Part shown: positions 16,577-35,125 of the stretch, in pieces
How the letters are laid out: every line of letters starts with the position of its first letter
How positions within the stretch are numbered: position 1 is the stretch's first letter
DNA from: Patescibacteria group bacterium
Lineage (GTDB): Bacteria > Patescibacteriota > Minisyncoccia > Portnoybacterales > GWB1-42-6
Direction: 5' to 3'
NCBI GenBank assembly: GCA_022709865.1
Contig: JAKLIA010000002.1
Span: 210,183-274,182, forward strand
Length of the DNA: 64,000 nt
The notes under the pieces: generated by a model
What the model was told of the DNA's origin: nothing
Seen by the model: the letters and a program-made list of their open reading frames with translations, nothing else
Databases searched by the model: none
Translations under genes and position numbers: made by a program

Positions 16577-17674
16577 TTATTTTTTTCTCTCAAGCATAAA
16601 GCCTGCCAAATCGCAGAAAAACTTTTTTGCTTCGCTCTCAAAAGCTGGCTGGGCAGCATCCAAATATTTTATGGCTCTCTTAAGCCGCGTTTGTGCATCT
16701 TGCCGGCAATAATCAAGGCTGCCAAGCTTCTTAAAAAGGTTAATAACTGCTCCAATTTCTTTAGCCGAAGCTTTTTCTTTGCCCAGAACAGATAAGATCT
16801 GCTGGCGCTGGCTGGAGTTAGCTTTTTTCAAAGCATGTATGACCAATAATGTCTTTTTGCCTTTGCGGATATCAGAACCAATACCTCGCCCTTTGCCGCC
16901 GTCAGAATCAATATCCAAAATATCGTCCTGCATTTGAAAAACAATTGCCGCTTCTTCAATATAAGCGTCTAGCGCCCGTTTTTGGGATTCGGTCGCATCT
17001 CCCAAAATTGCCCCCCAGGCCATAGCTGATTTGAAAAGCTGGCCGGTCTTGCACAAAACCATATTATAATAATCCTGCTCACTGACAATTTCATCCTGCT
17101 CAAAATGCAGGTCCATCGCCTGTCCGGTATTGTCAAAAATGGAAACTAATTGATGAAGATTCATGCCAGCCACTTTTTTAGCCTCGGATATATTCGACTC
17201 TAAAATCGGGAAGCTGCTGATGGTGTGCAAATATTTACCGTTAATGATTCCAGCAACCGCCCCAAAGCGCGAAGCAAAGTTTTTATACAGCTTATTTTCG
17301 GCAATTTTATTGAACTTGTCCTTTTTAAACTGCTGCTCAAATAAAATATGGACCGAGGCTTTTCCGCGCCGCTTATCATCTTCATCATAAATATCGTCGT
17401 GAATCAAAGTGTAGTTGTGATAAAGCTCAAAAGCTAAAGCCGGTTCAACAACCTTCTTCTCATCTTTCCCCCCAACCGCCCGATAAGCCATCAGCGTTAA
17501 GATCGGTCTTAACCGCTTGCCATCGCCCAGGCAATATTCCCGAAAGATCCGATATTGGTCCAGAATAAAAGAGTTTTTAAAGTTAGGCAGACCTTTTATA
17601 GTTTTGCGCAAATAACGGTCCATCTCTTTGTTGATGATCTTCTGGTATTTTTTTATAGTTTTTTCAAAATCCAT
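16577..17674 (-). CDS. Polyprenyl diphosphate synthase (trans-isoprenyl diphosphate synthase, GGPPS/IspB-like)
   Basis: First DDxxD in LIHDDIYDEDDKRRG and second Asp-rich motif FQMQDDILD; 365 aa. Confidence 0.85.
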   Translation of the reverse strand: MDFEKTIKKYQKIINKEMDRYLRKTIKGLPNFKNSFILDQYRIFREYCLGDGKRLRPILTLMAYRAVGGKDEKKVVEPALAFELYHNYTLIHDDIYDEDDKRRGKASVHILFEQQFKKDKFNKIAENKLYKNFASRFGAVAGIINGKYLHTISSFPILESNISEAKKVAGMNLHQLVSIFDNTGQAMDLHFEQDEIVSEQDYYNMVLCKTGQLFKSAMAWGAILGDATESQKRALDAYIEEAAIVFQMQDDILDIDSDGGKGRGIGSDIRKGKKTLLVIHALKKANSSQRQQILSVLGKEKASAKEIGAVINLFKKLGSLDYCRQDAQTRLKRAIKYLDAAQPAFESEAKKFFCDLAGFMLERKK

Positions 17675-19793: not shown

Positions 19794-20153
19794 TTACCAA
19801 GTCAGTTCCATTTGTCTTTTAGTGTTGCCGTAGATCCCCCAAGAAATAATTTTACCGCTGGCTGCGCGAGTCGCTGAAAACTGCGCGCCATTAGTTAAGG
19901 CCCCGGTAATTACGCCCCCAACAGTGGCGCATTCGCCGCTCTCCAACCGAGACTGATATAAACACTTTTCCGCGCCGGCATCAGCCGCGTAAAAAGCGGG
20001 TATGGAATTGACCAAGTCGTCTACCATTTTCACTTCATACATTATGATGGTGGCTGTTGTAAGAGCGATCAACAAGATAACGTTCATTACGAACATAGCC
20101 AATAAAATGGTTGTTGCCCCCCTTTGTTTTGTTTGTCTTGTTAGCTTTATCAT
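19794..20153 (-). CDS. PilX-like minor pilus assembly protein
   Basis: N-terminus RGATTILLAMFVMNVILLIALTTAT resembles a PilX N-domain; last gene of the minor-pilin operon. Confidence 0.45.
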   Translation of the reverse strand: MIKLTRQTKQRGATTILLAMFVMNVILLIALTTATIIMYEVKMVDDLVNSIPAFYAADAGAEKCLYQSRLESGECATVGGVITGALTNGAQFSATRAASGKIISWGIYGNTKRQMELTW

Positions 20154-20163
20154 CGCTGGTTTT

Positions 20164-20661
20164 TTATTGGGAATACTCTCTGGAGGAAACGGTGGTTTGC
20201 AAATGGATAACAGCCTGCTCTCCTGCTAAAGCCTCTTTATTGGTTATGGTCATAATAATTGTTACCCGAGGCGGCATAAAAAGAGTTCCGCTGCCCTCTT
20301 GCACATAAAAAGACCCTGTCATATCCACTTTGCTGGGCGTTAAGCACCCGGTAGAGTCACACTCTTGGTTAAATGAATACCTAACACTTTCCCCTTTGCT
20401 GTTGATAATATTGATAGCGGTGAATGGCCCGCCGGCAGGAGTCTCTATTTGGCTCATTCTTAATTCTTTGGATATCGATTCCAAAACAAAGCGGCCAGAA
20501 TCTAAAATGCCCTGCTGATTAAACACTTTTCTAGTGGCGCTTAAACTTATTAAAAAAATATCAACCACGCTTACCGCCACCACAGAAAAAATAGTCATCG
20601 CCACCAAAAGTTCGATTAGAGTGAAACCCGCGCTTTGGCTCTTTCTATTTTTAGGATCCAT
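20164..20661 (-). CDS. Type IV minor pilin / pseudopilin (prepilin-type N-terminal cleavage/methylation domain)
   Basis: Leader MDPKNRKSQSAG|FTLIELLVAMTIF. The ORF extends to 20772, but the start at the Met preceding the class III signal peptide is preferred. Confidence 0.7.
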   Translation of the reverse strand: MDPKNRKSQSAGFTLIELLVAMTIFSVVAVSVVDIFLISLSATRKVFNQQGILDSGRFVLESISKELRMSQIETPAGGPFTAINIINSKGESVRYSFNQECDSTGCLTPSKVDMTGSFYVQEGSGTLFMPPRVTIIMTITNKEALAGEQAVIHLQTTVSSREYSQ

Positions 20662-20677
20662 AGATTTATAATTTAAG

Positions 20678-21196
20678 CTATCGCCAATTCCATAAACGAT
20701 CCTCGGCCAGCAAACTGAAGTTTTTGTTTTTCTCTGTCCAAGAGACGGTGCAAACAACCCGGACTTCCACATCAGAGATCTTCGTCAAGGTTATTTTTCT
20801 TTTGTAAGCAGCCTTGGTGGCCACTCCCAAGTCATAGCTATAGAGCCCGGTGGCCTCATCGAATTTTAAAGGCTGGTCAGCAAAAGGCCGTAAAGATAAA
20901 TCGTTATATTGCACTATAAAATCATTAGTGCCGGAAATATTCCCATACCAGGAATCCCAACTAGCCGTGTTGTATGTTAAATCCCTGACGCTTTTTACTA
21001 ATTCAATTCCCTCTTGGGCTAAATTAGCCGCCACTAAGCGCGAAACGCCAAAAGAGCCGGAAGCCAAAGACTGATTTATCAGCATCATAACCCCAATCAA
21101 GCTAACCACAATTAAAAAGACGCCTATCATAACTTCCAATAGCGAAAAACCGCTTTCTTTTTTGTTAATAATGGTTTGCTGGTATTTGGACAGCAT
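20678..21196 (-). CDS. Type IV minor pilin (PilV/PilW-like)
   Basis: Class III signal peptide MLSKYQQTIINKKESG|FSLLEVMIGVFLIV. Confidence 0.7.
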   Translation of the reverse strand: MLSKYQQTIINKKESGFSLLEVMIGVFLIVVSLIGVMMLINQSLASGSFGVSRLVAANLAQEGIELVKSVRDLTYNTASWDSWYGNISGTNDFIVQYNDLSLRPFADQPLKFDEATGLYSYDLGVATKAAYKRKITLTKISDVEVRVVCTVSWTEKNKNFSLLAEDRLWNWR

Positions 21197-21210
21197 AAAA
21201 AAATAATCTG

Positions 21211-21708
21211 CTAAAAATCCACCAAGCCCGAAGAATAAATTGTAATTTGCCGGGAAAAATTGCCGTTTTGCAACACAAAAGCCTGAGAACCGGAATTAGC
21301 TCCATTAATATAGGTTATCGGCTCTGGCGGAGTAAAAAAAATACTTGCGCTTGAGGGCGTCAACGTGGTGTCGGCAGGCAAAGTTACTGTCTCTATTTTA
21401 ACGCTTACCCCTTCTTGATACACTTTGCTTGAGTCTGCGTTATAAAAAAGACAATATTGACTGGAAGATAAAGAATAGAATCCATAGCCGGTAGGGACTG
21501 ACGCGCTATAAGTCCGGCCCGATAAGGCCATATTTTGCGCTTGCCTAAGAGAAGATATCAATTGCTGGGTGCTGCGCGAAACATCATAGCGTTTCTGCCC
21601 CGTCCAATAGCCAGCCATTACCACGCTCGACAAGACAACAATGATGGCCATAACCACCAAAAGCTCAATTATAGTAAACCCGCGATGTTTTTGGCCGAAT
21701 ATTTTCAT
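21211..21708 (-). CDS. Type IV minor pilin / pseudopilin (FimT/GspH-like)
   Basis: MKIFGQKHRG|FTIIELLVVMAIIVVL prepilin motif. Confidence 0.7.
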   Translation of the reverse strand: MKIFGQKHRGFTIIELLVVMAIIVVLSSVVMAGYWTGQKRYDVSRSTQQLISSLRQAQNMALSGRTYSASVPTGYGFYSLSSSQYCLFYNADSSKVYQEGVSVKIETVTLPADTTLTPSSASIFFTPPEPITYINGANSGSQAFVLQNGNFSRQITIYSSGLVDF

Positions 21709-21816
21709 TAAATATATTATACCATTTTAACTAAATAAAAAAAGCGCCATAAAAACAAAGCTCGGCTTAGAAAACCTCTAAGCCGAGCTTTTAAAACTTC
21801 CTGGTCAAAACATTTC

Positions 21817-23757
21817 CTACTGCGGCGCAGTCTCTTTCCAATCAGGCAAAGGCAAGCGAATAGAAAGAGCCTCTGTTCTTTGTGCCGGATAACCATCACT
21901 GTCAGTAATATTTAAAGTTATCTGGGCTAGCCCGCTAGCGGAGAAGGTTACTTGAGGCGCGGCTTGGCCATCGGCTGAAGCCGGAGTGCCACCCGCGAAA
22001 GTCCAATGATAATTAGCTAAAGGACAATCTATTTCTGTTCCGTTGTTTCTATAACACTTAACAATGGCACCAAAAACTGCTTCTTCGCCAACTGAAGGAT
22101 TAGCCGGCGCCCAATAAAGATCGGTGATGGAAGGATATTGGTGCAAAGGAGTGGTAAAAGAGGAGGTAGAAGGAGTTATCCAATCGGAACTAGCGCCGTG
22201 ATTATCCCATACTTTCAGCCGCCAATAATATTTCTGGTTATAAACTAATTTTCCGGAACCTGTGGCATAAGCCTGAGAAGCCGAAGAGATTTGTCCTGTA
22301 TCAACAACTGTGCCTGGACCGGAGAACCCAGCATTAGTAGCTATCTGGATTTGATAAGCAGATTGAGTGTCGCCTGCATCCGGGTCAGTGAATGTCCAGG
22401 AGAATGTGGCAGCTGGACCGGAAGAGCGATAGTCTGGCTGGGTAGCTAATAAATTAATCGCGCTAGGCGGAATATTGCACGGCTCAATGTTGCAAGCTTG
22501 AGTTTGGGTTGCAGAACCAGAACAGCTGGCCCCACCGCAAGGCGCGGGATTGGTGCAAGTTCGAGTGCTTGTTTGTGTGCCGCCACCACAAGAGACAGAG
22601 CAACTAGACCAACTAGACCAACTAGACCAGCCGCCAGCAACCGCACAATCGGCCGCGCAAGAAGAACAGGTCTCTGTGCCGTTACAAACCCCATCACCGC
22701 AACAAACCGCCGCACCGGTTTTGTATGGCCCGGCGATAGCGTTGCCTAAAGTGCTATACGGAAAAATAACATTTGGACTATTGTCTATATTAAAAAACTT
22801 ATTAGCGCCAGTCACGACCCCCCCGCCAACAGGCAAGCCCCATTCTCCTGTTATAACATAAGGATAAGTATAATCGCCTAAAGATTTCATTACATAAGCC
22901 ACATACATATTATCCGGCGCTGTTGCATCAGTAAATGAACAAACCTTGCCCGAGCATAGCTCGCTATATGGCAAAGTTCTTAAAGCCCCAACATCTGAAG
23001 CAGTATTATAAGCATTCTCACCGCACGAAGAAACGTTTGAAGCATTACAACTATCAGAGTCCGTCCTGAGCCAGCCATTTCCTACCTGAGTTTTTATATA
23101 ATAAAACCAACTGTCCAGAGCGCTCTGGCTGCTGCTGCTAGGCAGAGTTAAGCGATAAATAGCTACTTGGCGACTATTGTCAGATGAATAATCTGGCGCC
23201 TGCTGAAAACTGCTAGAAACAACAGCGGTCGCATAGCACTTTGAACCAACCCTAATAGATTGGCTAAGAACCCAATAATCGGATACGGCCGAGGCACAAT
23301 TTGTATCCACATAACGATGAGCACTGTTATCTAAGGCGTCTACAGTATGCACTACACCATTACATTGGCCCCACTCATCATGTTGCGTGCAATCGTTATA
23401 AGTATAATACCGATAATAATAATCAGGGCGGGGGTTATAGAAAGTTACTGGTATTTGAAAACTGCAATCAGTGCCAGACATTGACGTCGGGACGATGGTC
23501 ACACCACCACCAGAAGAAGAGATATCGCAAATCACGCCTGTATAACAAAGAACTGCCGCACCCGGATCAAGCGGAGAAAGAAGAATAGAGACGATATTAA
23601 CTCCTATTGCCTGCGATACCGCATTAATAACATTTGATAGGCCGCCGGTTAAAATACTAACAACACTGCCCGCTTGCGCAGTTTTGGCCGACAGCAAAGA
23701 GAAGGAAATCGCCACTAATAAAATAACTATAAAAACTTTGTTTTTAAATAAGCTCAT
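21817..23757 (-). CDS. Large secreted protein with thrombospondin type-1 repeat and FN3-like region (candidate pilus-associated adhesin)
   Basis: Signal peptide [29 protein letters not shown] and a canonical TSP1 repeat [35 protein letters not shown]. Lies at the head of the minor-pilin operon. Confidence 0.6.
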
Positions 23758-23848
23758 GGTCAGATTTATTAAAAAATAAATTCAAAACCTCTAACTACAT
23801 CATACCATAATTGCCTATCTCTTCCTGAATGTTATCCACAGCAAAAGA

Positions 23849-23879
23849 AAAAGCGCATAACCGTTTCGGTTATGCGCTT
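23849..23879. terminator. Rho-independent terminator
   Basis: AAAGCGCATAACCG-tttc-GGTTATGCGCTT: a perfect 12-bp stem with A/T flanks. Confidence 0.7.
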
Positions 23880-24590: not shown

Positions 24591-26087
24591 TTGTCAAGCC
24601 TAGAGGCTATTTGCTATAATCAAGCTATGTTGCTACCTTTTCTCTCTTCCCTCCTAGGCATTATAGCTTTCCTGCCGCTAAATTGCTATCCGGCCAGCCT
24701 TGTTTTCCTAATTCCGCTTTTTATTTTCTTTTTAAAAGAAAATAAGCTTTGGCGGCTGGTCGCTGGCGCCTTTATTTTTAAAATTGTCTTTGCGCTGGGC
24801 GCGGCGTATTTCACTCTGGAACCGATTGCCTGGGCTTCGGAACTTTTAATTATTTTCTTTTTGCCGCTTAATATCTGGCTGGCTAAAAAATTGCTTCACC
24901 ACCTCTGCCAATCGCAGCCAATCAATTTTTTCAATAAAGAGCTCGCTCTGCTTTTTCTTTTGCCCTTTTTATTCACCCTTTCCGACATCCTGCAGGCCCG
25001 ATTCTCTTTATTGCCCAGCTACATTATGGCGGCCGGCAATAGTTTGGGCTCCTCCCCTTTCTTGGGGCTGGCGGGCTTAGGCGGAATAACTTTTTTAACT
25101 TTTTTTGCCGCGTTAATTAATGCCTTGCTGGCTGCCCTATTTTTAAAATTGCGCTCGCTTTACAAAAATAAAAACAATTCGCCAGCGCCAGAGAAAAAAA
25201 CGTGCTTTGTTCTTGCTGCCTTGTTGGTTCTAGCGCTGCTAGCCGGCTGGCTAATTTCTTTTTGGCAACTAAACAAAAATACCGACGAATATAACAGCAA
25301 AACTAGTATTATTAAAATCGCTGTCTTATCAGCCAAGGAATCTTTATATCCGGCTCAATTCGAAGAGACAAAAAAAGAGCTAACCAAACAACAGATAGAC
25401 CTCCTGGTCCTGCCGGAAAATATTTTTTACGACCCCGCCAACCCCGCCTACTTTTCCAACAATTACACCGGCTTCATGCAAAACCTGGCCCAAGAAATTG
25501 GCGCCAATGTTATCGCTGTTTTTGATACCTTCCAAGAACAAAAAAAATATAATTCGGCGGTTCTATTCAACAAACTAGGCGAGACTATCGGCATCCATAG
25601 CAAGTTCCGCATTACTTTTGCCGGCGAATATTGGCCTTTTGGCTCGTGGCAACCGCCGCTATCGGATCTTTTAAAAAAATCCTCGCCAGAGATAAAGAAC
25701 TTTGCCGTGTTTGACCCTAAGAACGCTTACAGCCGCGGCCAACAAAATAATCTTAATATTGTTTCTCAAAATAAAAGCGTTGTTTTTGCCGCGCCGGTTT
25801 GCTTGGAAATCCAATACCCCGACGACTTAAAATATTATCGGCAAACCGGCGCCCAATTTATCGTTAATCCGTCCAGCAACCGCTGGGTAGGGACCGGTTT
25901 AAAACACTTTCTCTATTTAACCGGCAACCTAAAAAAAATCGAGGCCGTCTGGCTGGGCTTGCCGGTCATTTCCAGCGGCGTTAAAGACTATGCTGGCCTA
26001 ACGCTGCCTAACGGCCAAACTTTTTTAAAAGACTCCTTAGAGTCAAACTTAAATTACACGTTGTTTTTTGGGGAAATAAAATATTAA
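24591..26087 (+). CDS. lnt: Apolipoprotein N-acyltransferase-like (N-terminal polytopic domain plus C-terminal CN-hydrolase)
   Basis: N-terminal ~6 TM helices followed by a nitrilase-fold E-K-C triad context (LLVLPE, HSK, PVCLE). The only plus-strand gene in the window. Confidence 0.6.
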   Translation: MSSLEAICYNQAMLLPFLSSLLGIIAFLPLNCYPASLVFLIPLFIFFLKENKLWRLVAGAFIFKIVFALGAAYFTLEPIAWASELLIIFFLPLNIWLAKKLLHHLCQSQPINFFNKELALLFLLPFLFTLSDILQARFSLLPSYIMAAGNSLGSSPFLGLAGLGGITFLTFFAALINALLAALFLKLRSLYKNKNNSPAPEKKTCFVLAALLVLALLAGWLISFWQLNKNTDEYNSKTSIIKIAVLSAKESLYPAQFEETKKELTKQQIDLLVLPENIFYDPANPAYFSNNYTGFMQNLAQEIGANVIAVFDTFQEQKKYNSAVLFNKLGETIGIHSKFRITFAGEYWPFGSWQPPLSDLLKKSSPEIKNFAVFDPKNAYSRGQQNNLNIVSQNKSVVFAAPVCLEIQYPDDLKYYRQTGAQFIVNPSSNRWVGTGLKHFLYLTGNLKKIEAVWLGLPVISSGVKDYAGLTLPNGQTFLKDSLESNLNYTLFFGEIKY

Positions 26088-26141: not shown

Positions 26142-26447
26142 TTACGCTTTTATTATCCGATAAGGCACAGCGCCCGAGGCCATCAGCCAAGGGTAAAGCC
26201 AAAGGGTTTTTGCTAGATAACAAACAAGGGCAAAAACAATAATGATAATTCCCTCTTTGCGCCGATTTTTTTCCGTTAGCAGGGAAATGCCCAAAATTAA
26301 GCCGGCCGCCAGGCTAAAAAGAGACGTCGCCAGCGCCACCCAAAACCATTTTTTGCCTAAGGCAAATAACTCATTGGAGAATAATTGTTCTGACATATTT
26401 TTAAAATTATCACTAATTAAAACTATCCATTTTAGTATAGCACGCAA
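26142..26447 (-). CDS. Small membrane protein, hypothetical
   Basis: 101 aa with 2-3 TM helices. Confidence 0.35.
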   Translation of the reverse strand: MRAILKWIVLISDNFKNMSEQLFSNELFALGKKWFWVALATSLFSLAAGLILGISLLTEKNRRKEGIIIIVFALVCYLAKTLWLYPWLMASGAVPYRIIKA

Positions 26448-26491: not shown

Positions 26492-27274
26492 TTAAAAGCC
26501 AAGCAAAAAATAAAGCCAATCAAAAAAACGCTCTCCGGCAAAATAGACCCCCATCGTTCCAAAAACCAGAAAAGGCCCAAAAGGAATCTGCGATTTCATT
26601 GTTTTTTTGCCCAAGAGCATCAGCAAGACTCCGGCCGCTGCGCCAATAAAAAAAGCCAAAAACAAAGCCATAAAAATACCCGGCCAGCCCAATAATAAGC
26701 CCATCAAAAAAGCTAACTTTATGTCGCCTATTCCCATTCCCCGGCCGCGGGTAATCAAAACTAAAGACAAGAAAAAGGCTGCTGCGCCAAAAGCGGAAAA
26801 AAGATACGGATAGAAACCCGCCAATCCCCCGGTTAATAGCCAACTCTTGCTTATAGCTAACAAAAAGGCTGCGCCGATAGCCGGCCAAAGGACTTTGTCC
26901 GGAATGACATAATGGCGTAGGTCATAAACAAAAACGACAACTAAGCTGGCGGCAATATACCAATTGAGCGCTAATTGAAAAATAAAAAGTGAGTTAGGCT
27001 CCACAAACTTATAAGCCAAAACAAAAAGAGCGCCGGTAATTATTTCTACCAACGGATATTGGAGAGAGATAGCCTTTTGGCAATAACGGCAGCGGCGGCG
27101 CAAAAGAATGAAGCTTAAAAGCGGTATCAGATCAAGCCAACTTAAAACATGGCCGCAATGAGGGCAATGAGAACGGCTTTTTACTATTTCCTCTCCTGTG
27201 GCTAAACGGCAAATAACTACGTTTAAAAAACTGCCGATAGTCAAACCAAAAATAAAAATTAAAACTTCCGCCAT
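26492..27274 (-). CDS. pilD: Prepilin peptidase (A24 family)
   Basis: N-terminal tetracysteine CPHCGH...CRYC, catalytic Asp region and GMGIGDIKLAFLMG; 260 aa. Confidence 0.85.
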   Translation of the reverse strand: MAEVLIFIFGLTIGSFLNVVICRLATGEEIVKSRSHCPHCGHVLSWLDLIPLLSFILLRRRCRYCQKAISLQYPLVEIITGALFVLAYKFVEPNSLFIFQLALNWYIAASLVVVFVYDLRHYVIPDKVLWPAIGAAFLLAISKSWLLTGGLAGFYPYLFSAFGAAAFFLSLVLITRGRGMGIGDIKLAFLMGLLLGWPGIFMALFLAFFIGAAAGVLLMLLGKKTMKSQIPFGPFLVFGTMGVYFAGERFFDWLYFLLGF

Positions 27275-27315
27275 ATATTTTGTTAGCGCTATTTGCTTTA
27301 TTTTATCATTTTTCT

Positions 27316-27358
27316 AAAACAAAAACCATTAGCTTTGAGCTGATGGTTTTTGTTTTTT
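27316..27358 (-). terminator. Rho-independent terminator downstream of pilA
   Basis: AACAAAAACCATTAGC-tttga-GCTGATGGTTTTTGTTTT: a ~15-bp stem with one mismatch and a T-run. Confidence 0.6.
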
Positions 27359-27378
27359 CCAAATTTAGAAAAGTCAAA

Positions 27379-27834
27379 TTAAGGAGTCACGTCATAAACC
27401 GGGTCTGTGCCAGCAAAGCCACTAGTAGCGCAATCGGCCGCAGCCGCATCCGCATCACTGTTTAAAGCAGTGTTAGGCAAAGCTTCTAGTCCCGCTACCT
27501 TAGTTCCTAAATGATATCCTTTAGTGGCAGACACGCAATATTGGTATGAGTTTGTTCCGTCCGGATCCAATGGCACCGCGCTAAGATAGGTTGGAGTCAA
27601 GGTGCTTAAAGCAGCCGGATAAGAGCCAGAGGCGTCATAATACATCTGCAAAGCCAGCTGCACTTGGCGAATATCAGAAATACGCCGCGCGTCGCGAGCT
27701 TTAGCCCGAGCGGTATTCAGCGAAACCATCACAATAGTCGCTAAAATACCGATGATAGAAATAACTACCAAAAGTTCGATCAAAGTAAAACCCTTCGTTA
27801 AGTAAGATTTTTTTTGTTCTTTCATTTTTTTCAC
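27379..27834 (-). CDS. pilA: Type IV major pilin
   Basis: KG|FTLIELLVVISIIGILA prepilin signal; 151 aa; a C-terminal Cys pair (CVSATKG...DCATSG); has its own terminator. Confidence 0.8.
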   Translation of the reverse strand: MKKMKEQKKSYLTKGFTLIELLVVISIIGILATIVMVSLNTARAKARDARRISDIRQVQLALQMYYDASGSYPAALSTLTPTYLSAVPLDPDGTNSYQYCVSATKGYHLGTKVAGLEALPNTALNSDADAAAADCATSGFAGTDPVYDVTP

Positions 27835-27864
27835 CTCCCTTCCATGCCGCGCTAAAGCGCGTAT

Positions 27865-29076
27865 TTATATACTATTAGCTACGCCATAAATTGGCATCAA
27901 AATTGCCGATACCAGAATAGCTACGCCGCCGCCGATCATTAAAATAAGTATCGGCTCTATCAATTGCGACATAGTTGCCGCGGTATTATCTACTTCTTTA
28001 TTATAAAACTGTCCGAGTTTTTTTAAAATAGTGTCCAAAGACCCCGTTTGCTCGCCCGTAGCGATCATTTGTGTTACCAAAGCCGGAATCTCTTTGTGTT
28101 TGGCAAAAGAGCTGGAAAGAGTATTGCCAACCCTGACCTCTTCTTTAGCTTCTGATACTATTTTTTGATAAACAACATTCCCCACCACTTCGCTGGTTAC
28201 TTGCAGGGCTTGCAAAATGGAAAGTCCGCCCTGGATCAAAGTGCTCAGATTATCAGCAATGCGCGTGATGTAAATCTTTTGAAAAACTTTTTTGCCAAAA
28301 ACGGGCAGATGGATCTTTAAAGTATCCCATCTTTCCCGCGCGACAGGCGAAGTCCTGATAGCATGGACAATATAATAAGCGCCCGCTGCTAGCGCCATTC
28401 CCAATAACCACCACCAATCTATTAAAAAATTAGAGAGAGCAATAAGCGCTTTGGTAGTAAACGGCAATTCCTGCCCGGATTCTTTCAAAAAGCTGGTTAA
28501 TTTAGGAACCACCATGATCATCATCAAAACCACGATCAAAACGAAAGCGCCTAAAATAAAGATTGGATAAGTTAAGGCCCCGCGAATCTTGGAGTTTAGA
28601 TCGTATTGTTTTTCCAAATAATCAGCTAAGTAATTTAATGATGCTTCTAGCCCCCCTGAGGCCTCGCCGGCTTTTATCATATTAACAAAAAAATCAGAAA
28701 AAACTTTCGGATGCTTGGCTAAAGCCTTTGAAAATACTGTGCCACCCTCAACATCACCGGCTACTTCAAAAATGATCTCCCTGAAATATTCGTTTTCCGT
28801 TTGGTTGGAAAGCGATTGCAAAGAAGAAAGAAGCGGCACCTGCGCTGAAACCAAAGTCGCCAGCTGCCTGGAGAAGTTGGTGAGGTCTTTCATTTTTACC
28901 CGCTGGAATATCTTTAATTTAGCCGAAAAAATAGACCCGCTTCGTCCGCTTTTTAGGTCCAGCAACACCAAGCCCCGCCCTTGCAACGTTTCAATGGCGC
29001 TATTGCGGCTAGATGCTTCCACGGCTCCGGTTTGCATCTCCCCTTGTTTTGTTCGAGCAATATAATTAAACTCCAT
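27865..29076 (-). CDS. pilC: Type IV pilus assembly platform protein PilC (GspF family)
   Basis: 403 aa with two GspF repeats and three TM segments. Confidence 0.85.
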   Translation of the reverse strand: MEFNYIARTKQGEMQTGAVEASSRNSAIETLQGRGLVLLDLKSGRSGSIFSAKLKIFQRVKMKDLTNFSRQLATLVSAQVPLLSSLQSLSNQTENEYFREIIFEVAGDVEGGTVFSKALAKHPKVFSDFFVNMIKAGEASGGLEASLNYLADYLEKQYDLNSKIRGALTYPIFILGAFVLIVVLMMIMVVPKLTSFLKESGQELPFTTKALIALSNFLIDWWWLLGMALAAGAYYIVHAIRTSPVARERWDTLKIHLPVFGKKVFQKIYITRIADNLSTLIQGGLSILQALQVTSEVVGNVVYQKIVSEAKEEVRVGNTLSSSFAKHKEIPALVTQMIATGEQTGSLDTILKKLGQFYNKEVDNTAATMSQLIEPILILMIGGGVAILVSAILMPIYGVANSI

Positions 29077-29086
29077 AATTCATTTT

Positions 29087-30160
29087 TTACCTCTGCAAAA
29101 TCATTTTTAATTCGTGGGCGTTGTTAGAATATGTTTGGGCATTTTCAAGGCTAATCATACCGCGATTTACCAAATCTACCAAGGACCGATTTAATGAGAT
29201 CATGCCTTCTTCGGCGCTCGTTTCTATCACCATATCAATTTGGTGCGTTTTGCCTTCACGGATCAGATTGCGAACTGCGGAATTAGCGATCAAAAGCTCT
29301 ACCGCGTTGATCATTCCGCCTTTTACCGACGGAATTAAGCGGCGGGAAAGAATGCCCAGCAGCGTAGCAGAAAGCTGCATACGGATCTGCGTTTGCTGAT
29401 GTGGCGGAAAGCTGTCAATAATGCGGTCAACGGTTTGGGCGGCGGTATTGGTATGCAAAGTAGAAAAGATCAAGTGCCCTGTCTCGGCCGCGGTCATAGC
29501 GGTGGAAATAGTTTCAGAATCCCGCATCTCCCCGATCATCGCCACATCCGCATCTTGGCGGAACATTGCCCGAAGCCCCTGCTGAAAATCGGCCACATCC
29601 ACGCTCACTTCGCGCTGGTCAATAATGCATTTATCCTGCGGGAAAATATATTCTATTGGGTCCTCAATAGTTATCATGTGGTCTTGGCGGGTATGGTTTA
29701 TTTCGTCCACCATCGCGGCTAACGCCGTTGATTTGCCGTGCCCCGACGGCCCCACCACCAAGAAAAATCCTTGAGTAGCCTGGGTAAATTGGTGCAAAAT
29801 ATGCGGTAAGCTTAATTCTTCGATCGTGCGTATCTTAGCGGGTATAAACCGCATCGCCGCCGCGATATTATTGCTTTCCTGATAAATGTTAACCCGGAAT
29901 CTGGCCTTATCTTTATACGCCATCGAAAGATCGACATCTTTGTTAAGCAAAAACTTTTCTTCTTGCTCTTTATTAAGCAAGCTCATAATCAGGCTCCTGG
30001 CGCGCTCGGGCGAAAGCGTTTCCCGGTCAGCCAGCATTGTTAGGCTTCCATCAACTCTAAGGATAGGCGGCCGGCCAACCGAAAGGTGCAAATCGGTAGC
30101 ATCACGTTTTATAACCTCTTCTAAAAGATCTTCTATGTCTTTTTTATAATCATCTGGCAT
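29087..30160 (-). CDS. pilT: Type IV pilus retraction ATPase PilT
   Basis: 357 aa; Walker A VVGPSGHGKST and a PilT-family secretion ATPase core. Confidence 0.8.
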   Translation of the reverse strand: MPDDYKKDIEDLLEEVIKRDATDLHLSVGRPPILRVDGSLTMLADRETLSPERARSLIMSLLNKEQEEKFLLNKDVDLSMAYKDKARFRVNIYQESNNIAAAMRFIPAKIRTIEELSLPHILHQFTQATQGFFLVVGPSGHGKSTALAAMVDEINHTRQDHMITIEDPIEYIFPQDKCIIDQREVSVDVADFQQGLRAMFRQDADVAMIGEMRDSETISTAMTAAETGHLIFSTLHTNTAAQTVDRIIDSFPPHQQTQIRMQLSATLLGILSRRLIPSVKGGMINAVELLIANSAVRNLIREGKTHQIDMVIETSAEEGMISLNRSLVDLVNRGMISLENAQTYSNNAHELKMILQR

Positions 30161-30195
30161 AAATATTTTTTATAATTTTATAATAAAGGATTTAG

Positions 30196-30618
30196 CTATG
30201 GCGTTATTACGTTATTGCAATCCTGGGTATAACCGTGCAAGAAATCCGTTTCTAAACAAAAAGTTATTGTATAAGTTGAATCGTCCGCCGAAGATTTATA
30301 AGTATAAACATACTCTCCGGTATTCGTGGGATCCGTAACCGGCCCAGATAAAAGTTTTTCGTTTATTAAGGCTTGGGATAGGGTGTCTGTTCCTGTTATG
30401 ACTGCCCCATCGGGCTCAGAAGGATAGGCAATATTTTGGACTTGATACAAAGCCAAGGCATCTCTAAAGGCTTTCATATCTGTCACTCGCCTGTCGTCCC
30501 GGCTTCGCGCCCTAACATTATTCATGGAAACCATGGTTATCGAAGCTAAAACTCCGATAATGGAAATGACCACTAAAAGCTCTATTAAAGTAAATCCGGT
30601 CTGTTTTCTTTGAAACAT
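30196..30618 (-). CDS. Type IV pilin (second pilin gene between pilT and pilB)
   Basis: MFQRKQTG|FTLIELLVVISIIGVLA. Confidence 0.75.
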   Translation of the reverse strand: MFQRKQTGFTLIELLVVISIIGVLASITMVSMNNVRARSRDDRRVTDMKAFRDALALYQVQNIAYPSEPDGAVITGTDTLSQALINEKLLSGPVTDPTNTGEYVYTYKSSADDSTYTITFCLETDFLHGYTQDCNNVITP

Positions 30619-30652
30619 AATAAAATTATTAATCTCCTAATTTAATCAAAAC

Positions 30653-32296
30653 TTAGATCGCTTCTTCTATATCAACTGCCCCCATTAATTCTTCGAAAGA
30701 AATAAAGCCTCGCAAAGTTTTAATTATCCCGTCCTGCTTCATAGTTATCATCCCTTGGCGCTCAGCTTCTTCCACTATTTTCCCCTCTGTCGCCCCTTCA
30801 ACCACGATCCTTTCCAATTGCGGCGTCATGGCTAAAGCTTCAAAAATAGCAATGCGCCCCTTGGTGCCTTTTTGCGCGCAGAACTTACAACCGGGTGCTT
30901 GCCAGATCTTTATATTATCCATATCGATATCCTTGATCCTTTCTTTAACTTTTGCCGGAAAATTATTAACTTCGCGGAGAAGCAATTCTTTTATTTTTGG
31001 CGCCGGTTCTATGGCTTTTTTGCAATCAGAGCACAAACGCCGCACCAATCTTTGGGACATTGCCAGGACCAAAGAAGACGGAATCAAAAAGCTTTGCACG
31101 CCCATATCAATAAGCCTGGGAATCACGCCAATAGCGTTATTAGTGTGGATGGTTGAAAGCACGATATGGCCTGTTAACGCCGCGTGGGTGGCAAGCTCAG
31201 CGGTTTCCGAGTCCCGGATTTCGCCTACCATGATAATATCCGGGTCTTGGCGCAAAATAGACCGCAGACCAGAAGCAAACGTATAACCAATTTCCGGCTT
31301 GATCTGGGATTGGCTCACGCCATCAATAAAATATTCTATCGGGTCTTCCAAGGAAACAACGTTAACTTCTTCTTGGTTCAAAGTTTTTAAAATCGCATAA
31401 AGAGTGGTTGTTTTGCCGGAACCCGTGGGGCCGGAAAGCAGGATCATGCCAAAGGGCTTAGCCATCGCCTCTTCAACCACCTGCCGATTGCCGCCTTCCA
31501 ATCCCAATGACTCAAAGCTTTTTACTCCTTGGCTGGAGTCAAGCAACCGCAAAACCACCTTCTCGCCAAAAGAAGTGGGGAAAGTAGAAACACGAAAATC
31601 AATTTTCTGATTATCGATGACCGAATGGAACCGGCCGTCTTGCGGCACGCGAGTTTCGTCGATCTTCAAAGAAGAAAGTATTTTTATTCTAGAAGCTACT
31701 GCCGGCTGGATCGCCCGAGGCAACAACAAGCTTGTGTATAAGACTCCGTCCACCCGAAAGCGGATCTTCAACCGGTCCTCGCCCGGTTCAATATGAATAT
31801 CGCTAGCTCGGCCTTCATTAGCATGGCGCAAAATTACCGCCACTATCTTAGTGATCGGCGCCTCGGCCATTACCCGCTCTAACGCCGCCTCAGCTTTGGA
31901 TTTTTTATCTTTGTTTTCCGGCTCGTCCTTAACAGAAAGTTCTTTTTCCAATTCCGACAAAGCCGTATCAACTTCTTCTTTTAGAGTGCGATATTGCTTA
32001 AGGACGTTCTTAAAATCAGTATCCGTAATTAAAAAAATGCTGGGGGTGAAATGCCTATTTTGAGCAATAAAACTGACTGCTTCTTGGGACTTTAAATCAT
32101 CGGGATTGAGCATCCCGATTTCCAAAACCTTCCCCTTCCTTTCCATTGGCACTAATTGATAAAAAGCGGCCGCTTCTTCGGTCACTTCTCTTAAAACTTG
32201 CGGCGAAATCAATTTTCCCGCCAGATCCGCCAACGGAACGCCCAATTTTTTAGCGCGCTCTTGGGCTAATTTTATTTCATCGGAAACGTTAGGCAC
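30653..32296 (-). CDS. pilB: Type IV pilus assembly ATPase PilB (GspE family)
   Basis: 547 aa; N-terminal GspII_E domain, Walker A LLSGPTGSGKTTTLYA and a tetracysteine CSDC...CKFC. Confidence 0.85.
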   Translation of the reverse strand: MPNVSDEIKLAQERAKKLGVPLADLAGKLISPQVLREVTEEAAAFYQLVPMERKGKVLEIGMLNPDDLKSQEAVSFIAQNRHFTPSIFLITDTDFKNVLKQYRTLKEEVDTALSELEKELSVKDEPENKDKKSKAEAALERVMAEAPITKIVAVILRHANEGRASDIHIEPGEDRLKIRFRVDGVLYTSLLLPRAIQPAVASRIKILSSLKIDETRVPQDGRFHSVIDNQKIDFRVSTFPTSFGEKVVLRLLDSSQGVKSFESLGLEGGNRQVVEEAMAKPFGMILLSGPTGSGKTTTLYAILKTLNQEEVNVVSLEDPIEYFIDGVSQSQIKPEIGYTFASGLRSILRQDPDIIMVGEIRDSETAELATHAALTGHIVLSTIHTNNAIGVIPRLIDMGVQSFLIPSSLVLAMSQRLVRRLCSDCKKAIEPAPKIKELLLREVNNFPAKVKERIKDIDMDNIKIWQAPGCKFCAQKGTKGRIAIFEALAMTPQLERIVVEGATEGKIVEEAERQGMITMKQDGIIKTLRGFISFEELMGAVDIEEAI

Positions 32297-32304
32297 AAAA
32301 AAAG

Positions 32305-32360
32305 AATTATGAATTACGAATTATGAATTACAGCCTTAATCCATAGTTCATAATTCATTC
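32305..32360. promoter_or_regulatory. Tandem and inverted repeats in the pilB upstream region (candidate operator/promoter)
   Basis: gaattatgaattac repeated twice in tandem (32305-32332), with its inverted copy ttcataattcattc at 32347-32360, just upstream of the pilB start. Confidence 0.4.
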
Positions 32361-32393
32361 TTCACGATTCATTCTTTATAGTTTTTTGGTCCC

Positions 32394-32756
32394 CTAGAAG
32401 GCCTCGAAGGGATTAACCCGGCCCTTTTCCCCTATCGCTATCGGCAATTTATCGCTAGCAACCAAAGATTGGAACTTTTTATCAGAGAAGATCACGCTGC
32501 CCAAAGAAATAGTTTTTAGCGATTCCAGCATTTTGTTGGTTGAATCGATCTGCTGCTGCTCTGCCAAAGAAAGAGTATTTTCATTTGTTGAGGAAACGCC
32601 TGTTGTCAGCTGCCCTCCGCTGCCAAAGCCAAAATAAAGCACCGCGGCAGCAGCTAAAGCCACAAAACCCAAAAGATAAAGCATCTTCCGGCTTTTTTGC
32701 CTTTCCGGCGTATCAATAATAATATTTTTTCCTGCGTCCCCGGGAATAATTGCCAT
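32394..32756 (-). CDS. Hypothetical pilus assembly protein (PilP-like position)
   Basis: 120 aa with an N-terminal TM segment; follows the pilO-like gene. Confidence 0.35.
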   Translation of the reverse strand: MAIIPGDAGKNIIIDTPERQKSRKMLYLLGFVALAAAAVLYFGFGSGGQLTTGVSSTNENTLSLAEQQQIDSTNKMLESLKTISLGSVIFSDKKFQSLVASDKLPIAIGEKGRVNPFEAF

Positions 32757-32764
32757 AATTTTTA

Positions 32765-33304
32765 TTATCTATAATAAGCGTTCAAAGAGATCTTAAAGTT
32801 TTGCGCAATATAACCTCCTACTTCTTGTTCCCCGAAATTAATCGCAGTTACGTCCATAATCCTTAAGTTCTCTTCAATTGATTTTAAAAATGAGATTAAA
32901 GATCCTTGACTACCGCTCAAGCTTATATCGACGATCAAAGTTTTGGCTCCTGTCGCAACTGCTTGTTTATTTTTTTTGTCATCAGGAGAACTAAAGGCCA
33001 CATCGCCAAAAACCAAACCGCTCCGGGAAGATAGGTCTTCCAATTGAACTAAGAGCCCCGGCAAGTCTTCCCCCTGGGTGATAGCTTGAGCCACTTTTTC
33101 CGCCTCGCTCGATAAGTTCTCGTATTTTATTTCCAATTCCGATAATTTCTTGCTTAACTTTTGAGTGCTGGCTAATTTTTCCCGCCAATCAGCCGCATCC
33201 TGCCGCAACAAAGAGACCTCGTTAAAGGCTGGCAAAAAATATTGCCAAACAACAAATACAATTATGGCTACAAAAACGATTAAAAGGATGGCTTGCCTGT
33301 TCAT
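32765..33304 (-). CDS. pilO: PilO-like type IV pilus assembly protein
   Basis: 179 aa with an N-terminal TM helix and coiled coil; position in the pilMNO order. Confidence 0.55.
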   Translation of the reverse strand: MNRQAILLIVFVAIIVFVVWQYFLPAFNEVSLLRQDAADWREKLASTQKLSKKLSELEIKYENLSSEAEKVAQAITQGEDLPGLLVQLEDLSSRSGLVFGDVAFSSPDDKKNKQAVATGAKTLIVDISLSGSQGSLISFLKSIEENLRIMDVTAINFGEQEVGGYIAQNFKISLNAYYR

Positions 33305-33316
33305 AATATATAAGTT

Positions 33317-33955
33317 TTATTTTTGCAAAATCCTCGGATCAAAATTAAAAGCCACCAAAAAAGTGACTCCGCCGGTTTTATCCAAAGAAATACTGCTTAC
33401 TCTCACATTAGAAAAGCCGTCATTTTCTAATGCCAGCAACTGCCTAGCCAGCGTGGCATAGTCAGAAGAGAACCCCCGCAGAGAAATCTCGCTATTTTTT
33501 ACGGATAGGTCAAAAGTTTCCCACTGAACGCGAGGCAAAGTTGTGGCCGCCAACCGGTCAAAAACTACCGAAGAATAAATATGGTTTTTTAAAAGCGCTT
33601 GCATCAAGATCGCGCCTTTATCAAAATCAACTATTTTCTGCGCCAAAACTTTGTCTTCGGCGCTAAAAACTTCTGACTGCTGTTTCTTTAGGTCGCTAAT
33701 TTGATTATTAAGAGACTTCGCATAAAAATACAGCCCGCCCCACAACAAAAGGACCAGCACCAAAGCGACTCCGCTTATTACCACTCCCAATCTTAAAAGA
33801 GTTTCTTTGGCCCGGGAAAAAACGACCGAACCGCCACCGCTAAAAGAAAACTTATTTTTTAAGTTCTTAAAAAAATCCATTACGCTAACCGGCCTTTTCC
33901 CCGGCTCGGAAGATAGAATGTTGTTCTTTTTATAATCTTTAGGAAATAGATCCAC
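33317..33955 (-). CDS. pilN: PilN-like type IV pilus assembly protein
   Basis: 212 aa, single TM, located after pilM. Confidence 0.55.
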   Translation of the reverse strand: MDLFPKDYKKNNILSSEPGKRPVSVMDFFKNLKNKFSFSGGGSVVFSRAKETLLRLGVVISGVALVLVLLLWGGLYFYAKSLNNQISDLKKQQSEVFSAEDKVLAQKIVDFDKGAILMQALLKNHIYSSVVFDRLAATTLPRVQWETFDLSVKNSEISLRGFSSDYATLARQLLALENDGFSNVRVSSISLDKTGGVTFLVAFNFDPRILQK

Positions 33956-34049
33956 AAGAGAAGAATTATAAATTGTTATTTACGAGTTGCCCGGCAGCTC
34001 ATAAATCCCAATCCATTATTCATGCTTATTATTTGCCTTTTATTTTTTA

Positions 34050-35033
34050 TTAATCTTCGGTTCTCATGGCCAAGCCCGTAGCAATAGAAAATTGCGGCCC
34101 CAGCTCTTTCAAAAAAACAGCCACTTTCTGGTCATATCCTACTCTAGCAAAAGGATCGCCTACTTTTACCGGCATTTTCAATTTAGAGCTTAAAAAATCT
34201 ACCAGTTCTTTTTCGTTGGCTCGCCCGCCAGCCAATAAACACTGCCCTATTTTTTTATTATAACGCATCTGGAAAATGTTAACAATCCTATCTATTTCCA
34301 TTAAGATAATTTCTTTGTTTGTAGACTCTAAATTATGGCTCAATTTGATAAATCCTTGGTCCAGAACAATAATATCGGTTCCTTTGCGGCCAAGATCTAT
34401 CACCATAAAAGTATTTTTATCATTGCCGATCAACGAACGCGCTAAACTGAATGATTCTTGTTCCAGCGCGTCCACCTTTAATCCCGCCTGGCTCACTAGG
34501 TTAGTGACCCTGTTTATCACTTCTTTGGGCACAGCCAAAAGCAATATTTGAACAGAGGGGCCGCTGGCTGGAGAACCTGCCTCGGCTGAAACACCGCCTT
34601 GAATAGAATCGGCTGCGCTCTTACTAGCGCCGCCATCGCTTCCGGAAATTACCGTCCAATCAAGCACTACCTCTTCTAAAGGAAGGGGCACATATTTTTG
34701 CGCTTCAAAAGAAACCGCTGCCGCCAATTCATTAGCCGGCATTACCGGCAAAGAGATAACTGTAGAAAAGGTTTTCTCTACCGGCAAAGAAACTACTGCG
34801 TGCCGGCCGTCCAGCTTAGCCTCCACGATCAAGGCCCTCAAAAGCTTTATAATTTCATCATCCTTTAAATCGATCACGCTAAAAACCGCCCCGGTTTTTA
34901 CTTGTGCCAAAGCATAGTTAACCAAATAAGCCCGCTCGCCTTTCCGTCCCAGCTCGACTATTTTTATAGACGCGCTGCCCAAATCAATTCCCAGCTGCGT
35001 GCTTGATTTTGCTCCAAAAAGCCAATCTAGCAT
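34050..35033 (-). CDS. pilM: Type IV pilus assembly protein PilM (actin-like ATPase fold)
   Basis: LGIDLGSASIKIVEL (N-terminal actin-like fold). The ORF extends to 35078; the start at MLDWLF is preferred. Confidence 0.75.
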   Translation of the reverse strand: MLDWLFGAKSSTQLGIDLGSASIKIVELGRKGERAYLVNYALAQVKTGAVFSVIDLKDDEIIKLLRALIVEAKLDGRHAVVSLPVEKTFSTVISLPVMPANELAAAVSFEAQKYVPLPLEEVVLDWTVISGSDGGASKSAADSIQGGVSAEAGSPASGPSVQILLLAVPKEVINRVTNLVSQAGLKVDALEQESFSLARSLIGNDKNTFMVIDLGRKGTDIIVLDQGFIKLSHNLESTNKEIILMEIDRIVNIFQMRYNKKIGQCLLAGGRANEKELVDFLSSKLKMPVKVGDPFARVGYDQKVAVFLKELGPQFSIATGLAMRTED

Positions 35034-35125
35034 ATGAATTAAAGTTCTATCTATATTCAAATAATAACACAAAAACAACTATTTTATTATCCACAGACAA
35101 AGTAGCCGGTTTAAATATACCCTTA

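Follow-up and report, generated by a model that had tools for sequence, protein, structure and literature searches.

Thrombospondin type-1 repeats (TSRs) of animals and Apicomplexa bind sulfated glycans and surface receptors (PMC3417536), and cultivated Saccharibacteria bind their hosts via type IV pili, with minor-pilin loci that encode large proteins lacking a PilD-type signal and proposed to act as PilY1-like adhesins (PMC11623550). The present work concerns a gene for a modular 646-residue protein with a TSR (hereafter the TSP1 gene), located between type IV pilus machinery and minor-pilin genes on a stretch of 64,000 nt (the window) of a contig from Candidatus Portnoybacteria, which belong to the Candidate Phyla Radiation (CPR, Patescibacteria). 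All coordinates are window positions, except where the handle of another locus (L001 and so on) is given. The bacterium is ultrasmall and probably attached to a host, as a life on other microbes is assumed for the CPR in general; the host-recognition molecules of this group are almost unknown beyond a few cultivated Saccharibacteria. The TSP1 gene is a concrete candidate for such a molecule, its product being predicted to be exported and carrying an adhesion repeat of animal type; it is also of relevance to the exchange of domains between uncultured bacteria and eukaryotes. With moderate probability, the product is a Sec-exported modular adhesin that binds a host or another surface and is deployed together with type IV pili. 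The points of interest are an N-terminal domain without match, a conserved partner gene, a C-terminal tail motif and a recurrent, non-obligatory tie to pilus loci.

Comparison with described systems

The module of the window protein is like the TSRs of animal and apicomplexan proteins (thrombospondin-1, properdin, UNC5, ADAMTS, TRAP/CSP) in WxxWxxW, CSxSCG, six cysteines, length and spacing, and those TSRs likewise reside in extracellular multi-module adhesive proteins. In contrast to animal TSRs, it is encoded by a CPR genome, occurs as a single repeat, possesses an extra cysteine (C407, as in properdin-like 'APxCGG' variants) and retains one arginine of the Arg layer. It falls into a clade of prokaryote-type TSRs, with 61–76% identity to these and at most 62% identity to animal TSRs.

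PilY1/PilC of Pseudomonas, Neisseria and Myxococcus resemble the window protein as large non-pilins with a Sec signal that are encoded beside or within minor-pilin genes and are presumed to be adhesive. In an earlier reading of the sequence (the original prediction), the gene was said to occupy the place where PilY1 or tip-adhesin genes usually reside. This stands for the position only; neither a PilY1/PilC domain nor a prepilin motif was found, and the orthologs P0002 and P0003 lie away from pilins. Unlike PilY1/PilC (PF05567), the protein has no C-terminal β-propeller and no vWA domain according to Pfam and NCBIfam, its C-terminal half being tandem FN3/PKD-like. Moreover, its gene lies upstream of a FimU/GspH-like gene behind a terminator, and the linkage with pilins is not family-wide. 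Judged by its domains and N-terminus, the window protein belongs neither with the PilY1 homologs nor with the pilins.

PilX1 and PilX2 of TM7x (PMC11623550) are likewise CPR proteins from a type IV pilus locus, without a PilD-type signal, with a large accessory or lectin-like part and with a proposed role in host binding. They have a pilin-like 'lollipop' N-terminus with a jelly roll or β-propeller, whereas the window protein has a predicted cleavable Sec signal, an unmatched N-domain and TSP1, FN3 and PKD modules; the comparison was made by features. In modular pilins (PilB and PilC of Streptococcus sanguinis) and in TSP1–pilin fusions, adhesive modules are also tied to pilus systems, but the window protein differs from modular pilins in the lack of a class III signal peptide and of GFxxxE. 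RbmA, the biofilm matrix adhesin of Vibrio cholerae, and other FN3 pairs have a similar C-terminal tandem β-sandwich at the level of fold only (12–14% identity), and RbmA-type adhesins have no counterpart of the N-domain, the TSP1 module or the tail. By these comparisons the protein would be of a known kind, that of modular bacterial adhesins with a eukaryote-type domain.

The thrombospondin type-1 module and the layout of the protein

The 646-residue open reading frame (ORF) of the original prediction exists on the minus strand, and its product is 100% identical to the hypothetical protein P5089_01630 (NCBI) of a metagenome-assembled genome of Candidatus Portnoybacteria. Its domains are collated in Table 1. 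The Pfam model TSP_1 (PF00090) matched residues 378–427 over profile positions 1–49 of 49 with 46.0 bits (gathering score 21.6, E 5.8e−12); the hidden Markov model match on which the claim of a canonical module had been staked was therefore obtained. The 58-residue module was aligned by phmmer over its whole length with TSR2/TSR3 of human thrombospondin-1 (7yyk, 1lsl) and with properdin, with per-repeat scores of up to 53.9 bits for 7yyk. The six canonical cysteines are in register with those of solved TSRs, C407 being the one addition. The Trp ladder WxxWxxW consists of W377, W380 and W383 and is followed by C386-S-V-S-C390-G (motif CSx(S/T)CG), with CSVSCGGG in register. The Arg-layer strand TQTSTRTC retains Q395 and R399 and has serine in place of the middle arginine; in most other prokaryote-type TSRs, this strand reads TQTRTRTC. 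By its profile score, Trp ladder, CSx(S/T)CG motif and cysteines, the module is a genuine member of the TSP_1 family. The GC content of the module is locally raised (0.55 vs. about 0.44). A reading of this as a sign of recent transfer was dropped, since the codons for Cys, Gly, Ala and Trp account for it.

The N-terminus is predicted, by inspection, to be a classical Sec/signal peptidase I export signal, with a hydrophobic core of 16 residues and the cleavage motif AQA↓G at residues 27–30. The claim of a secreted protein was borne out to this extent, an n–h–c signal peptide being recognised by a sequence heuristic. The possibility of a lipoprotein was dropped because the cleavage site is without Cys (no lipobox). 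Neither a prepilin GFxxxE or class III signal nor an N_methyl or TIGR02532 match was found in the 646-residue protein, unlike in the neighbouring pilins and in P0064, and it therefore cannot polymerise as a pilin. Together with the signal peptide, its 26 cysteines fit an extracellular protein. The Gly/Ser/hydrophobic segment at residues 30–78 may be a membrane hairpin anchor; in many relatives, the segment after the signal peptide consists of one or two strongly hydrophobic, transmembrane (TM)-like helices.

No Pfam match was obtained for residues 30–350. C-terminal to the TSP1 module, Ig_Rha78A_N (PF25788) scored 58.9 bits (gathering score 27.4). The Pfam fn3 model itself had no match in the protein, and the NCBIfam matches were limited to the rhamnosidase Ig domain, with no sorting-signal or family model. 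For the second β-sandwich, the PKD matches at residues 560–628 were below threshold (PKD_4, PF18911, 22.8 vs. 27; PKD, PF00801, 19.4 vs. 23.5), and the domain is tentatively named PKD-like from its predicted fold alone. The full-length AlphaFold2 (AF2) model is mixed, with a mean predicted local distance difference test score (pLDDT) of 67; residues 190–345 are confident, the two C-terminal β-sandwiches moderate and the TSP1 module poor. The predicted C-terminal half resembles tandem FN3/Ig pairs, namely RbmA, NCAM FN3 and the N-terminal domain of GH78 rhamnosidase (Foldseek, E 4e−6 to 1e−4). These fold matches and the Ig_Rha78A_N match above threshold agree with the FN3-like segment of the original prediction.

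The N-domain family and its variable modules

An exhaustive HMMER search of 1.84 billion proteins with residues 31–345 as query returned 45 cluster representatives of an N-domain family. A word-indexed search with the N-terminal 345 residues gave P0121 and P0122 only and missed the close orthologs. All family loci with a taxon label in GTDB genomes are from Patescibacteria (Paceibacterota, Saccharibacteria-labelled or 'Patescibacteria group'). Four features characterise the family: a signal peptide ending in AxAG, which is conserved throughout, a Gly/Ser/hydrophobic segment, a domain of ~300 residues and a short C-terminal tail. The residues Y201, R202, W217, G226, C268, C273, D277, Y288 and K291 are invariant in the family alignments A2 and A3, and the motifs RQ(V/I)AIYR(F/L)TLP, CSG(N/K)VCxFxD, YVAYVxK and GNAIxGPYKTG recur; the window protein has the invariant residues, the hydrophobic segment and the tail. 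The AF2 model of the N-domain is of high confidence (pLDDT 88.8, pTM 0.84). Its fold had no significant match in the PDB or in BFVD (viral), and no PDB sequence, Pfam or NCBIfam match was obtained. The whole protein is therefore placed in a family that is CPR-specific and has no annotation.

The N-domain and the tail are constant and the content between them is variable. Over 46 members, Pfam modules were found as follows: Ig_Rha78A_N and Flg_new_2 in five each, TSP_1 and PKD in four each, and LCCL and fn3 in one each. Of the close orthologs, P0001 and P0004 contain TSP1, which is missing as a clean indel of 52–55 residues from P0002 (68% identity) and P0003 (55%); both of the latter keep the Cys-rich linker and the Ig domain on either side of the gap. 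In P0125, the TSR is found at another position. The clean indel among orthologs and the differing position in P0125 indicate that TSP1 is an optional, recurrently recruited cassette that was gained or lost within the family.

The same Cys-rich linker, CG(D/N)GxC..ETCSSCxxDC, was also seen beside a TSR in P0112, and one family member carries LCCL. As judged from such cases, eukaryote-associated modules and a recurring Cys-rich linker circulate among these surface proteins.

The family tail follows the pattern [WYFL][KRQ]E[VI]xP[RQK], FxEF or YIEN at the extreme C-terminus (for example ...LPDWKE(V/T)APQ, ...WREIIPR, ...YQEITPR, ...FQEF and ...YIEN). It is not followed by a TM helix and is therefore not a signal of the sortase or exosortase type. 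The tail motif was also observed at the end of many secreted CPR proteins that have nothing in common in their upstream domains (P0035, P0038, P0051, P0121, P0122, P0124–P0157; L003:12638–13996; L007:14068–15261; L008:12538–15258), and pilins of the locus end alike (...YDVTP at 27379, ...NVITP at 30196). The tail could serve as a sorting or anchoring signal that has yet to be described; nothing on the motif was found in the literature searched.

Origin and spread of the module

Ranked first among the matches to the 58-residue module are 21 proteins (61–76% identity), all of bacterial type by architecture or name; among them are pilins, one protein from Paceibacterota and others with Flg_new, He_PIG, DUF11 or PKD contexts. 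They are followed by the closest animal TSRs, those of molluscs and cnidarians (53–62% identity). A tblastn search of 72,556 plasmids and 50,697 phage genomes gave no match to the TSR. According to these searches, TSRs are rare in collections of cultivated bacteria, whereas uncultured prokaryotes possess an established clade of them. The statement of the original prediction that TSP1 is rare in bacteria is thus valid outside uncultured lineages, as the plasmid and phage searches indicate, and is qualified for metagenomes, in which the prokaryote-type clade occurs. The high identity to animal TSRs would fit an inter-domain transfer at some point. No account of type-1 TSRs in the CPR, in prokaryotes generally or in pilins was found in the literature searched, and the CPR-related mentions of 'thrombospondin' referred to type-3 repeats.

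Four metagenomic proteins (P0064, P0077, P0082 and P0087; locus L046:3341–5077) have prepilin N-termini of the form GF(S/T)LIELS, with a TIGR02532 match for P0064, and carry 2–4 C-terminal TSRs. Their TSRs belong to the same prokaryote-type clade and are 70–76% identical to the window module. Such pilin–TSP1 fusions would constitute independent support, of the 'Rosetta-stone' type, for a link with the pilus. The gene for P0077 lies between genes for a MobA/MobL relaxase and a TraG/TrwB-like coupling protein, a setting that suggests that this pilin with TSRs is encoded by a mobile element.

Neighbouring genes and association with type IV pili

The proteins of the window were compared by phmmer with all ORFs of 47 fetched loci, and the results were compiled in a synteny table. 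The TSP1 gene was confirmed to be a neighbour of minor-pilin genes; it lies directly upstream of four of them on the same strand, and LigA is next after the four. In the upstream direction, the order is α/β-hydrolase, Lnt-like gene (opposite strand), small membrane protein, PilD, pilin, PilC, PilT, pilin, PilB, an ORF of unknown function, PilO, PilN and PilM. Among these pilus genes of the window, no secretin was found.

The family gene has pilus genes within 10 kb in the window, L001, L008/L022, L011/L042, L040 and L023, and probably also nearby in L044. The window and L001 share the same gene order around the family gene. In L011/L042 and L040 the order is PilD, three minor pilins, family gene, small TM protein, PilX-like gene and LigA; in L008/L022 it is family gene, two ORFs, PilB, PilC and pilins. 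In L023, hydrolase, lipoprotein, small TM protein and Lnt precede the family gene, which is followed by one ORF, PilMNO, PilB, PilT, PilC and pilins. The gene for P0003 lies amid resolvase, TrwB-like, PD-(D/E)XK and integrase genes, and that for P0002, the closest ortholog, is likewise outside pilus loci. Among the close orthologs, of which there are only four, presence of TSP1 coincides with location in a pilus locus (two with both, two with neither). The association of the family with type IV pilus genes is suggestive, and the recurrence of pilus genes near family members in different gene orders makes a functional link with the pilus system plausible.

The steadiest neighbour of the N-domain gene is a small protein of ~85 residues with two predicted TM segments (2-TM protein), the gene for which lies directly beside it or close by in 13 lineages. 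Its family has the motif KKWFWxGI...EK..RKEG...GPWL..G.LP.Y and no Pfam match above threshold; further copies are L003:7737–7997, L007:9712–9966, L008:9730–9987, L010:10618–10998, L011:4719–5000, L023:8121–8396 and L031:8785–9042. The Lnt-like gene recurs by the family gene in about eight lineages, often on the opposite strand and alongside the small 2-TM gene.

Two minor observations concern the pilus genes themselves. Minor pilin 3 as listed (20164–20772) shares ~95 nt with the gene before it, and the prepilin motif does not begin until residue 45; translation probably starts near 20664 instead, in agreement with the 166-residue ortholog in L001. Between PilO and PilB, an ORF of 120 residues (32394–32756, minus strand) has no Pfam match. 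It is matched in position by L023 14500–14844 (114 residues), both products ending in ...NPF(E/V)..., and may be an unrecognised component of pilus assembly.

Transcription signals

The gene had been described as heading the minor-pilin operon. This was not supported, in view of a terminator after its stop codon, a terminator upstream of it and a conserved promoter-like block before the first minor-pilin gene. The post-stop terminator (21791–21757) folds with −28.2 kcal/mol (z −4.8), and none of 200 shuffled sequences folded as well. In L001, a counterpart of the hydrolase terminator is found at 7735–7765, and the spacer also contains a hairpin like the post-stop terminator. Extended −10 sequences of the form TGGTATRAT occur twice in the 64 kb, both on the minus strand at the starts of the TSP1 gene and of the first minor-pilin gene, the count alone not being significant. 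A block of 35 nt before the minor-pilin ATG, GCGCTTTTTTTATTTAGTTAAAATGGTATAATATA, is identical in L001, where the ortholog protein is 50% identical. The flanking terminators and the conserved promoter-like block indicate that the TSP1 gene is most likely a transcription unit of its own, beside rather than at the head of the minor-pilin operon. In L011, L042 and L040, the family gene lies inside the minor-pilin cluster, yet with its own promoter-like site.

Promoter-like extended −10 boxes ~8 nt before the ATG, without an obvious Shine–Dalgarno sequence, were noted in the window (21709–21756), in L001:10020–10066 and in L011:3147–3182, which suggests near-leaderless transcripts in these genomes.

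The 9-bp repeat behind the Trp ladder

The 9-bp repeat (caactagac x3) of the original prediction is real and was recovered as an array by Tandem Repeats Finder (TRF). Its TRF score of 59 is the joint highest in the 64-kb window, tied with one other array. The repeat unit in the window gene is TGGTCTAGT, and the coding strand reads TGG TCT AGT three times, followed by TGC TCT. The chance of identical codons across three units was estimated at about 0.003 from the Ser codon usage of the gene. At the same site, the L001 ortholog P0004 (50% identity) has TGGTCAGCT three times, followed by TGC TCG, and encodes WSA three times. The units are perfect inside each of the two orthologs, yet differ between them, which points to concerted evolution, either by slippage with contraction and expansion or by conversion, so the repeat appears to be homogenised within each gene. 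The slipped-strand variation suspected earlier is supported in this way on the evolutionary time scale only. Phase-variable on/off switching via the repeat was considered and dropped, as a 9-bp unit keeps copy changes in frame; such changes would lengthen or shorten the Trp ladder, not turn the gene off. TSRs with two Trp residues are common among prokaryote-type repeats, which makes ladder-length variants plausible.

Proposed function and alternative explanations

For an adhesin deployed with type IV pili, export would proceed by Sec, and the post-signal hydrophobic segment, possibly with the small 2-TM partner, would hold the N-domain at the membrane or envelope. The N-domain and the short C-terminal tail would form a constant 'chassis' and the region between them a variable binding-module stalk, in which the Cys-rich linker, the TSR and the FN3-like and PKD-like domains would project outward. 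By analogy with animal and apicomplexan TSRs, TSP1 would serve as the ligand-binding tip for glycans or surface proteins of a partner cell. The gene, lying between the core genes for the pilus and the operon of minor pilins, would be transcribed alone, and its product would work with type IV pili in host attachment, with turnover of the 9-bp repeat by slippage or conversion possibly altering the ladder length in frame.

Several observations weigh against this proposal. Type IV pilus genes are nearby in about 6 of ~17 lineages, which is a raw count, and none were seen within the available flanks of about 11 other lineages, including those of P0002 and P0003. Strong terminators part the TSP1 gene from the pilin operon. 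The CWR core of the module retains just one of two or three canonical arginines, and the pLDDT is below 50 over the TSP1 region (residues 354–424), the latter because the module is present in only 4 of the 46 sequences in the alignment. In addition, the N-domain could be catalytic, given its invariant R, D, K, Y and C residues.

The same locus could encode a PilY1-like pilus-tip adhesin, a non-pilin captured by the minor-pilin priming complex, for instance via its tail or N-domain, and presenting TSP1 away from the cell. The gene adjoins four minor pilins in the window and in L001 and is inside the cluster in L011/L042 and L040; it encodes, as PilY1 does, a Sec rather than a prepilin signal; PilX1/PilX2 of TM7x offer a precedent (PMC11623550), and TSP1–pilin fusions display TSRs on pilus subunits elsewhere. 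The tail ...WKE(V/T)AP is also loosely like the C-termini of the locus pilins. We nevertheless regard a tip adhesin as rather unlikely, in view of the lack of a PilY1/PilC β-propeller or any other detectable similarity, the terminator and promoter-like site of the gene itself, the position of most family members away from pilins, with the small 2-TM neighbour kept in 13 lineages, and the hydrophobic segment, which suggests membrane tethering and not transport on a filament. If the pili were incidental in gene-dense genomes, the product could be a generic envelope or matrix protein, with the small 2-TM protein and the Lnt-like enzyme as its partners in anchoring or maturation. Neighbour counts (13 lineages for the small TM gene and ~8 for the Lnt-like gene, against ~6 for pilus genes), the location of P0002 and P0003 outside pilus loci and the separate transcription unit agree with this, but pilus linkage in at least four gene orders, once embedded in a minor-pilin cluster, and the existence of TSP1–pilin fusions do not, and a generic envelope protein is judged unlikely.

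Highly unlikely, in our view, is a targeted effector, the N-domain of which would be an enzyme, a membrane-active domain or a toxin domain directed to the host envelope by TSP1, FN3 and PKD. The idea draws on complement C6–C9, in which TSRs flank a pore-forming domain, on the invariant Y201, R202, W217, C268, C273, D277, Y288 and K291, on the long β-hairpins of the N-domain model and on the β-pore-formers Dln1, gamma-hemolysin and CytK among the best, non-significant PDB matches. The pore-former matches are noise, however (E>0.08, probability ≤0.04, TM-scores ~0.1), the long hairpin is the most conserved part and, unlike the insertion loops of pore-formers, not amphipathic, and no catalytic family was returned by Pfam, NCBIfam or PDB sequence searches. 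That a TSP1 exon was inserted by an assembly artefact or eukaryotic contamination is extremely improbable. The identity of 53–62% to mollusc and cnidarian TSRs and the raised GC content might be taken to suggest it, but the latter is explained by codon content, the module lies in frame within a bacterial ORF that has bacterial sequence on both sides, a 50%-identical ortholog that stems from an independent run carries it in the corresponding place, several independent metagenomes contain orthologs, and all of the 21 best module matches are prokaryote-type, ahead of any animal protein.

The adhesin deployed with type IV pili can be extended, as a distinctly unlikely further step, to an undescribed CPR host-attachment system that would comprise the chassis, the 2-TM partner, often the Lnt-like enzyme and swappable cassettes, physically coupled to the retractile type IV pilus by way of the minor-pilin complex. 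The cassettes would be TSP1, LCCL, PKD and InlB-type repeats, partly derived from eukaryotes. Such a system would be the bacterial counterpart of TRAP in Apicomplexa, where an adhesin with TSRs is coupled to a motor for motility, and the Trp-ladder repeat would add in-frame length variation to its binding site.

Feature coordinates and other genes of the window

Table 1. Features of the TSP1 gene, its product and its surroundings (aa, amino acid residues; CDS, coding sequence).
Feature	Position	Strand	Basis or remark
CDS, modular exported protein, 646 aa	21817..23757	−	ORF call
Sec-type signal peptide, aa 1–29	23671..23757	−	MSLFKNK, hydrophobic core, AKTAQA↓G; sequence and hydropathy heuristic
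Gly/Ser/hydrophobic segment, aa 30–78	23524..23670	−	AF2: low-confidence helices
N-terminal globular domain, aa 85–352, β-rich	22702..23505	−	family alignment and AF2
Cys-rich linker, aa 352–373	22639..22704	−	kept in all four close orthologs
Thrombospondin type-1 repeat, aa 375–427	22477..22635	−	Pfam TSP_1, phmmer alignment with solved TSRs
9-bp tandem repeat, encodes WSS-WSS-WSS	22597..22629	.	TRF: period 9, 3.7 copies, 95% match
Ig/FN3-like domain, Pfam Ig_Rha78A_N (PF25788), aa 449–531	22165..22413	−	Pfam, NCBIfam, Foldseek
Second β-sandwich, PKD-like, aa 545–633	21859..22125	−	predicted fold; below Pfam gathering score
Conserved extreme C-terminal tail	21820..21858	−	tail comparison; no TM helix after
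Intrinsic terminator directly after the stop codon	21757..21791	−	15–16 bp stem and T-run
Intrinsic terminator of the upstream α/β-hydrolase gene	23851..23879	−	z −5.7; isolates the TSP1 gene on its 5' side
Extended −10-like TGGTATGAT, 42 nt before the TSP1-gene ATG	23799..23807	−	putative own promoter
Extended −10-like TGGTATAAT, 8 nt before the first minor-pilin ATG	21716..21724	−	putative minor-pilin operon promoter
Four minor-pilin genes, downstream of the TSP1 gene, same strand	19794..21708	−	Pfam
Minor pilin 1, GspH/FimU-like	21211–21708	−	
Minor pilin 2, N_methyl motif	20678–21196	−	
Minor pilin 3, N_methyl motif	20164–~20664	−	
Minor pilin 4, PilX_N type	19794–20153	−	
Lnt-like membrane protein (LNT_N and CN_hydrolase)	24591..26087	+	Pfam; synteny table
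Small 2-TM membrane protein	26142..26447	−	alignment A4 and synteny table
Type IV pilus core genes, PilD through PilM	26492..35078	−	Pfam
TSP1-less orthologs P0003, P0002	L002:8001–9833 (= L013), L047:2256–4127		

A hybrid polyketide synthase/nonribosomal peptide synthetase (PKS/NRPS) assembly line was noted at 52505–63976 (minus strand), which is unusual in a CPR genome, these organisms being held to be biosynthetically minimal. Its parts are a KS-KR-MT-ACP-C protein of 2044 residues, an A-PCP protein of 634 residues and a (KS-linker)-ACP-C protein of 702 residues that reaches the edge of the window. Between the pilus cluster and the PKS/NRPS genes lies a dense run of ORFs (35126–50744, minus strand) with at least two confirmed radical S-adenosylmethionine (radical-SAM) proteins (35126–36067, 46497–47834), and several more ORFs at ~37831–50744 look radical-SAM-like by their Cys-rich N-termini. 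The run also includes a PMT_2-type GT-C glycosyltransferase (42591–44387), for which no link to the TSP1 protein was seen. To our knowledge, the eukaryotic TSR modifiers DPY19 C-mannosyltransferase and POFUT2 are not expected in a bacterium. A further radical-SAM gene is located outside the run, at 15331–16659.

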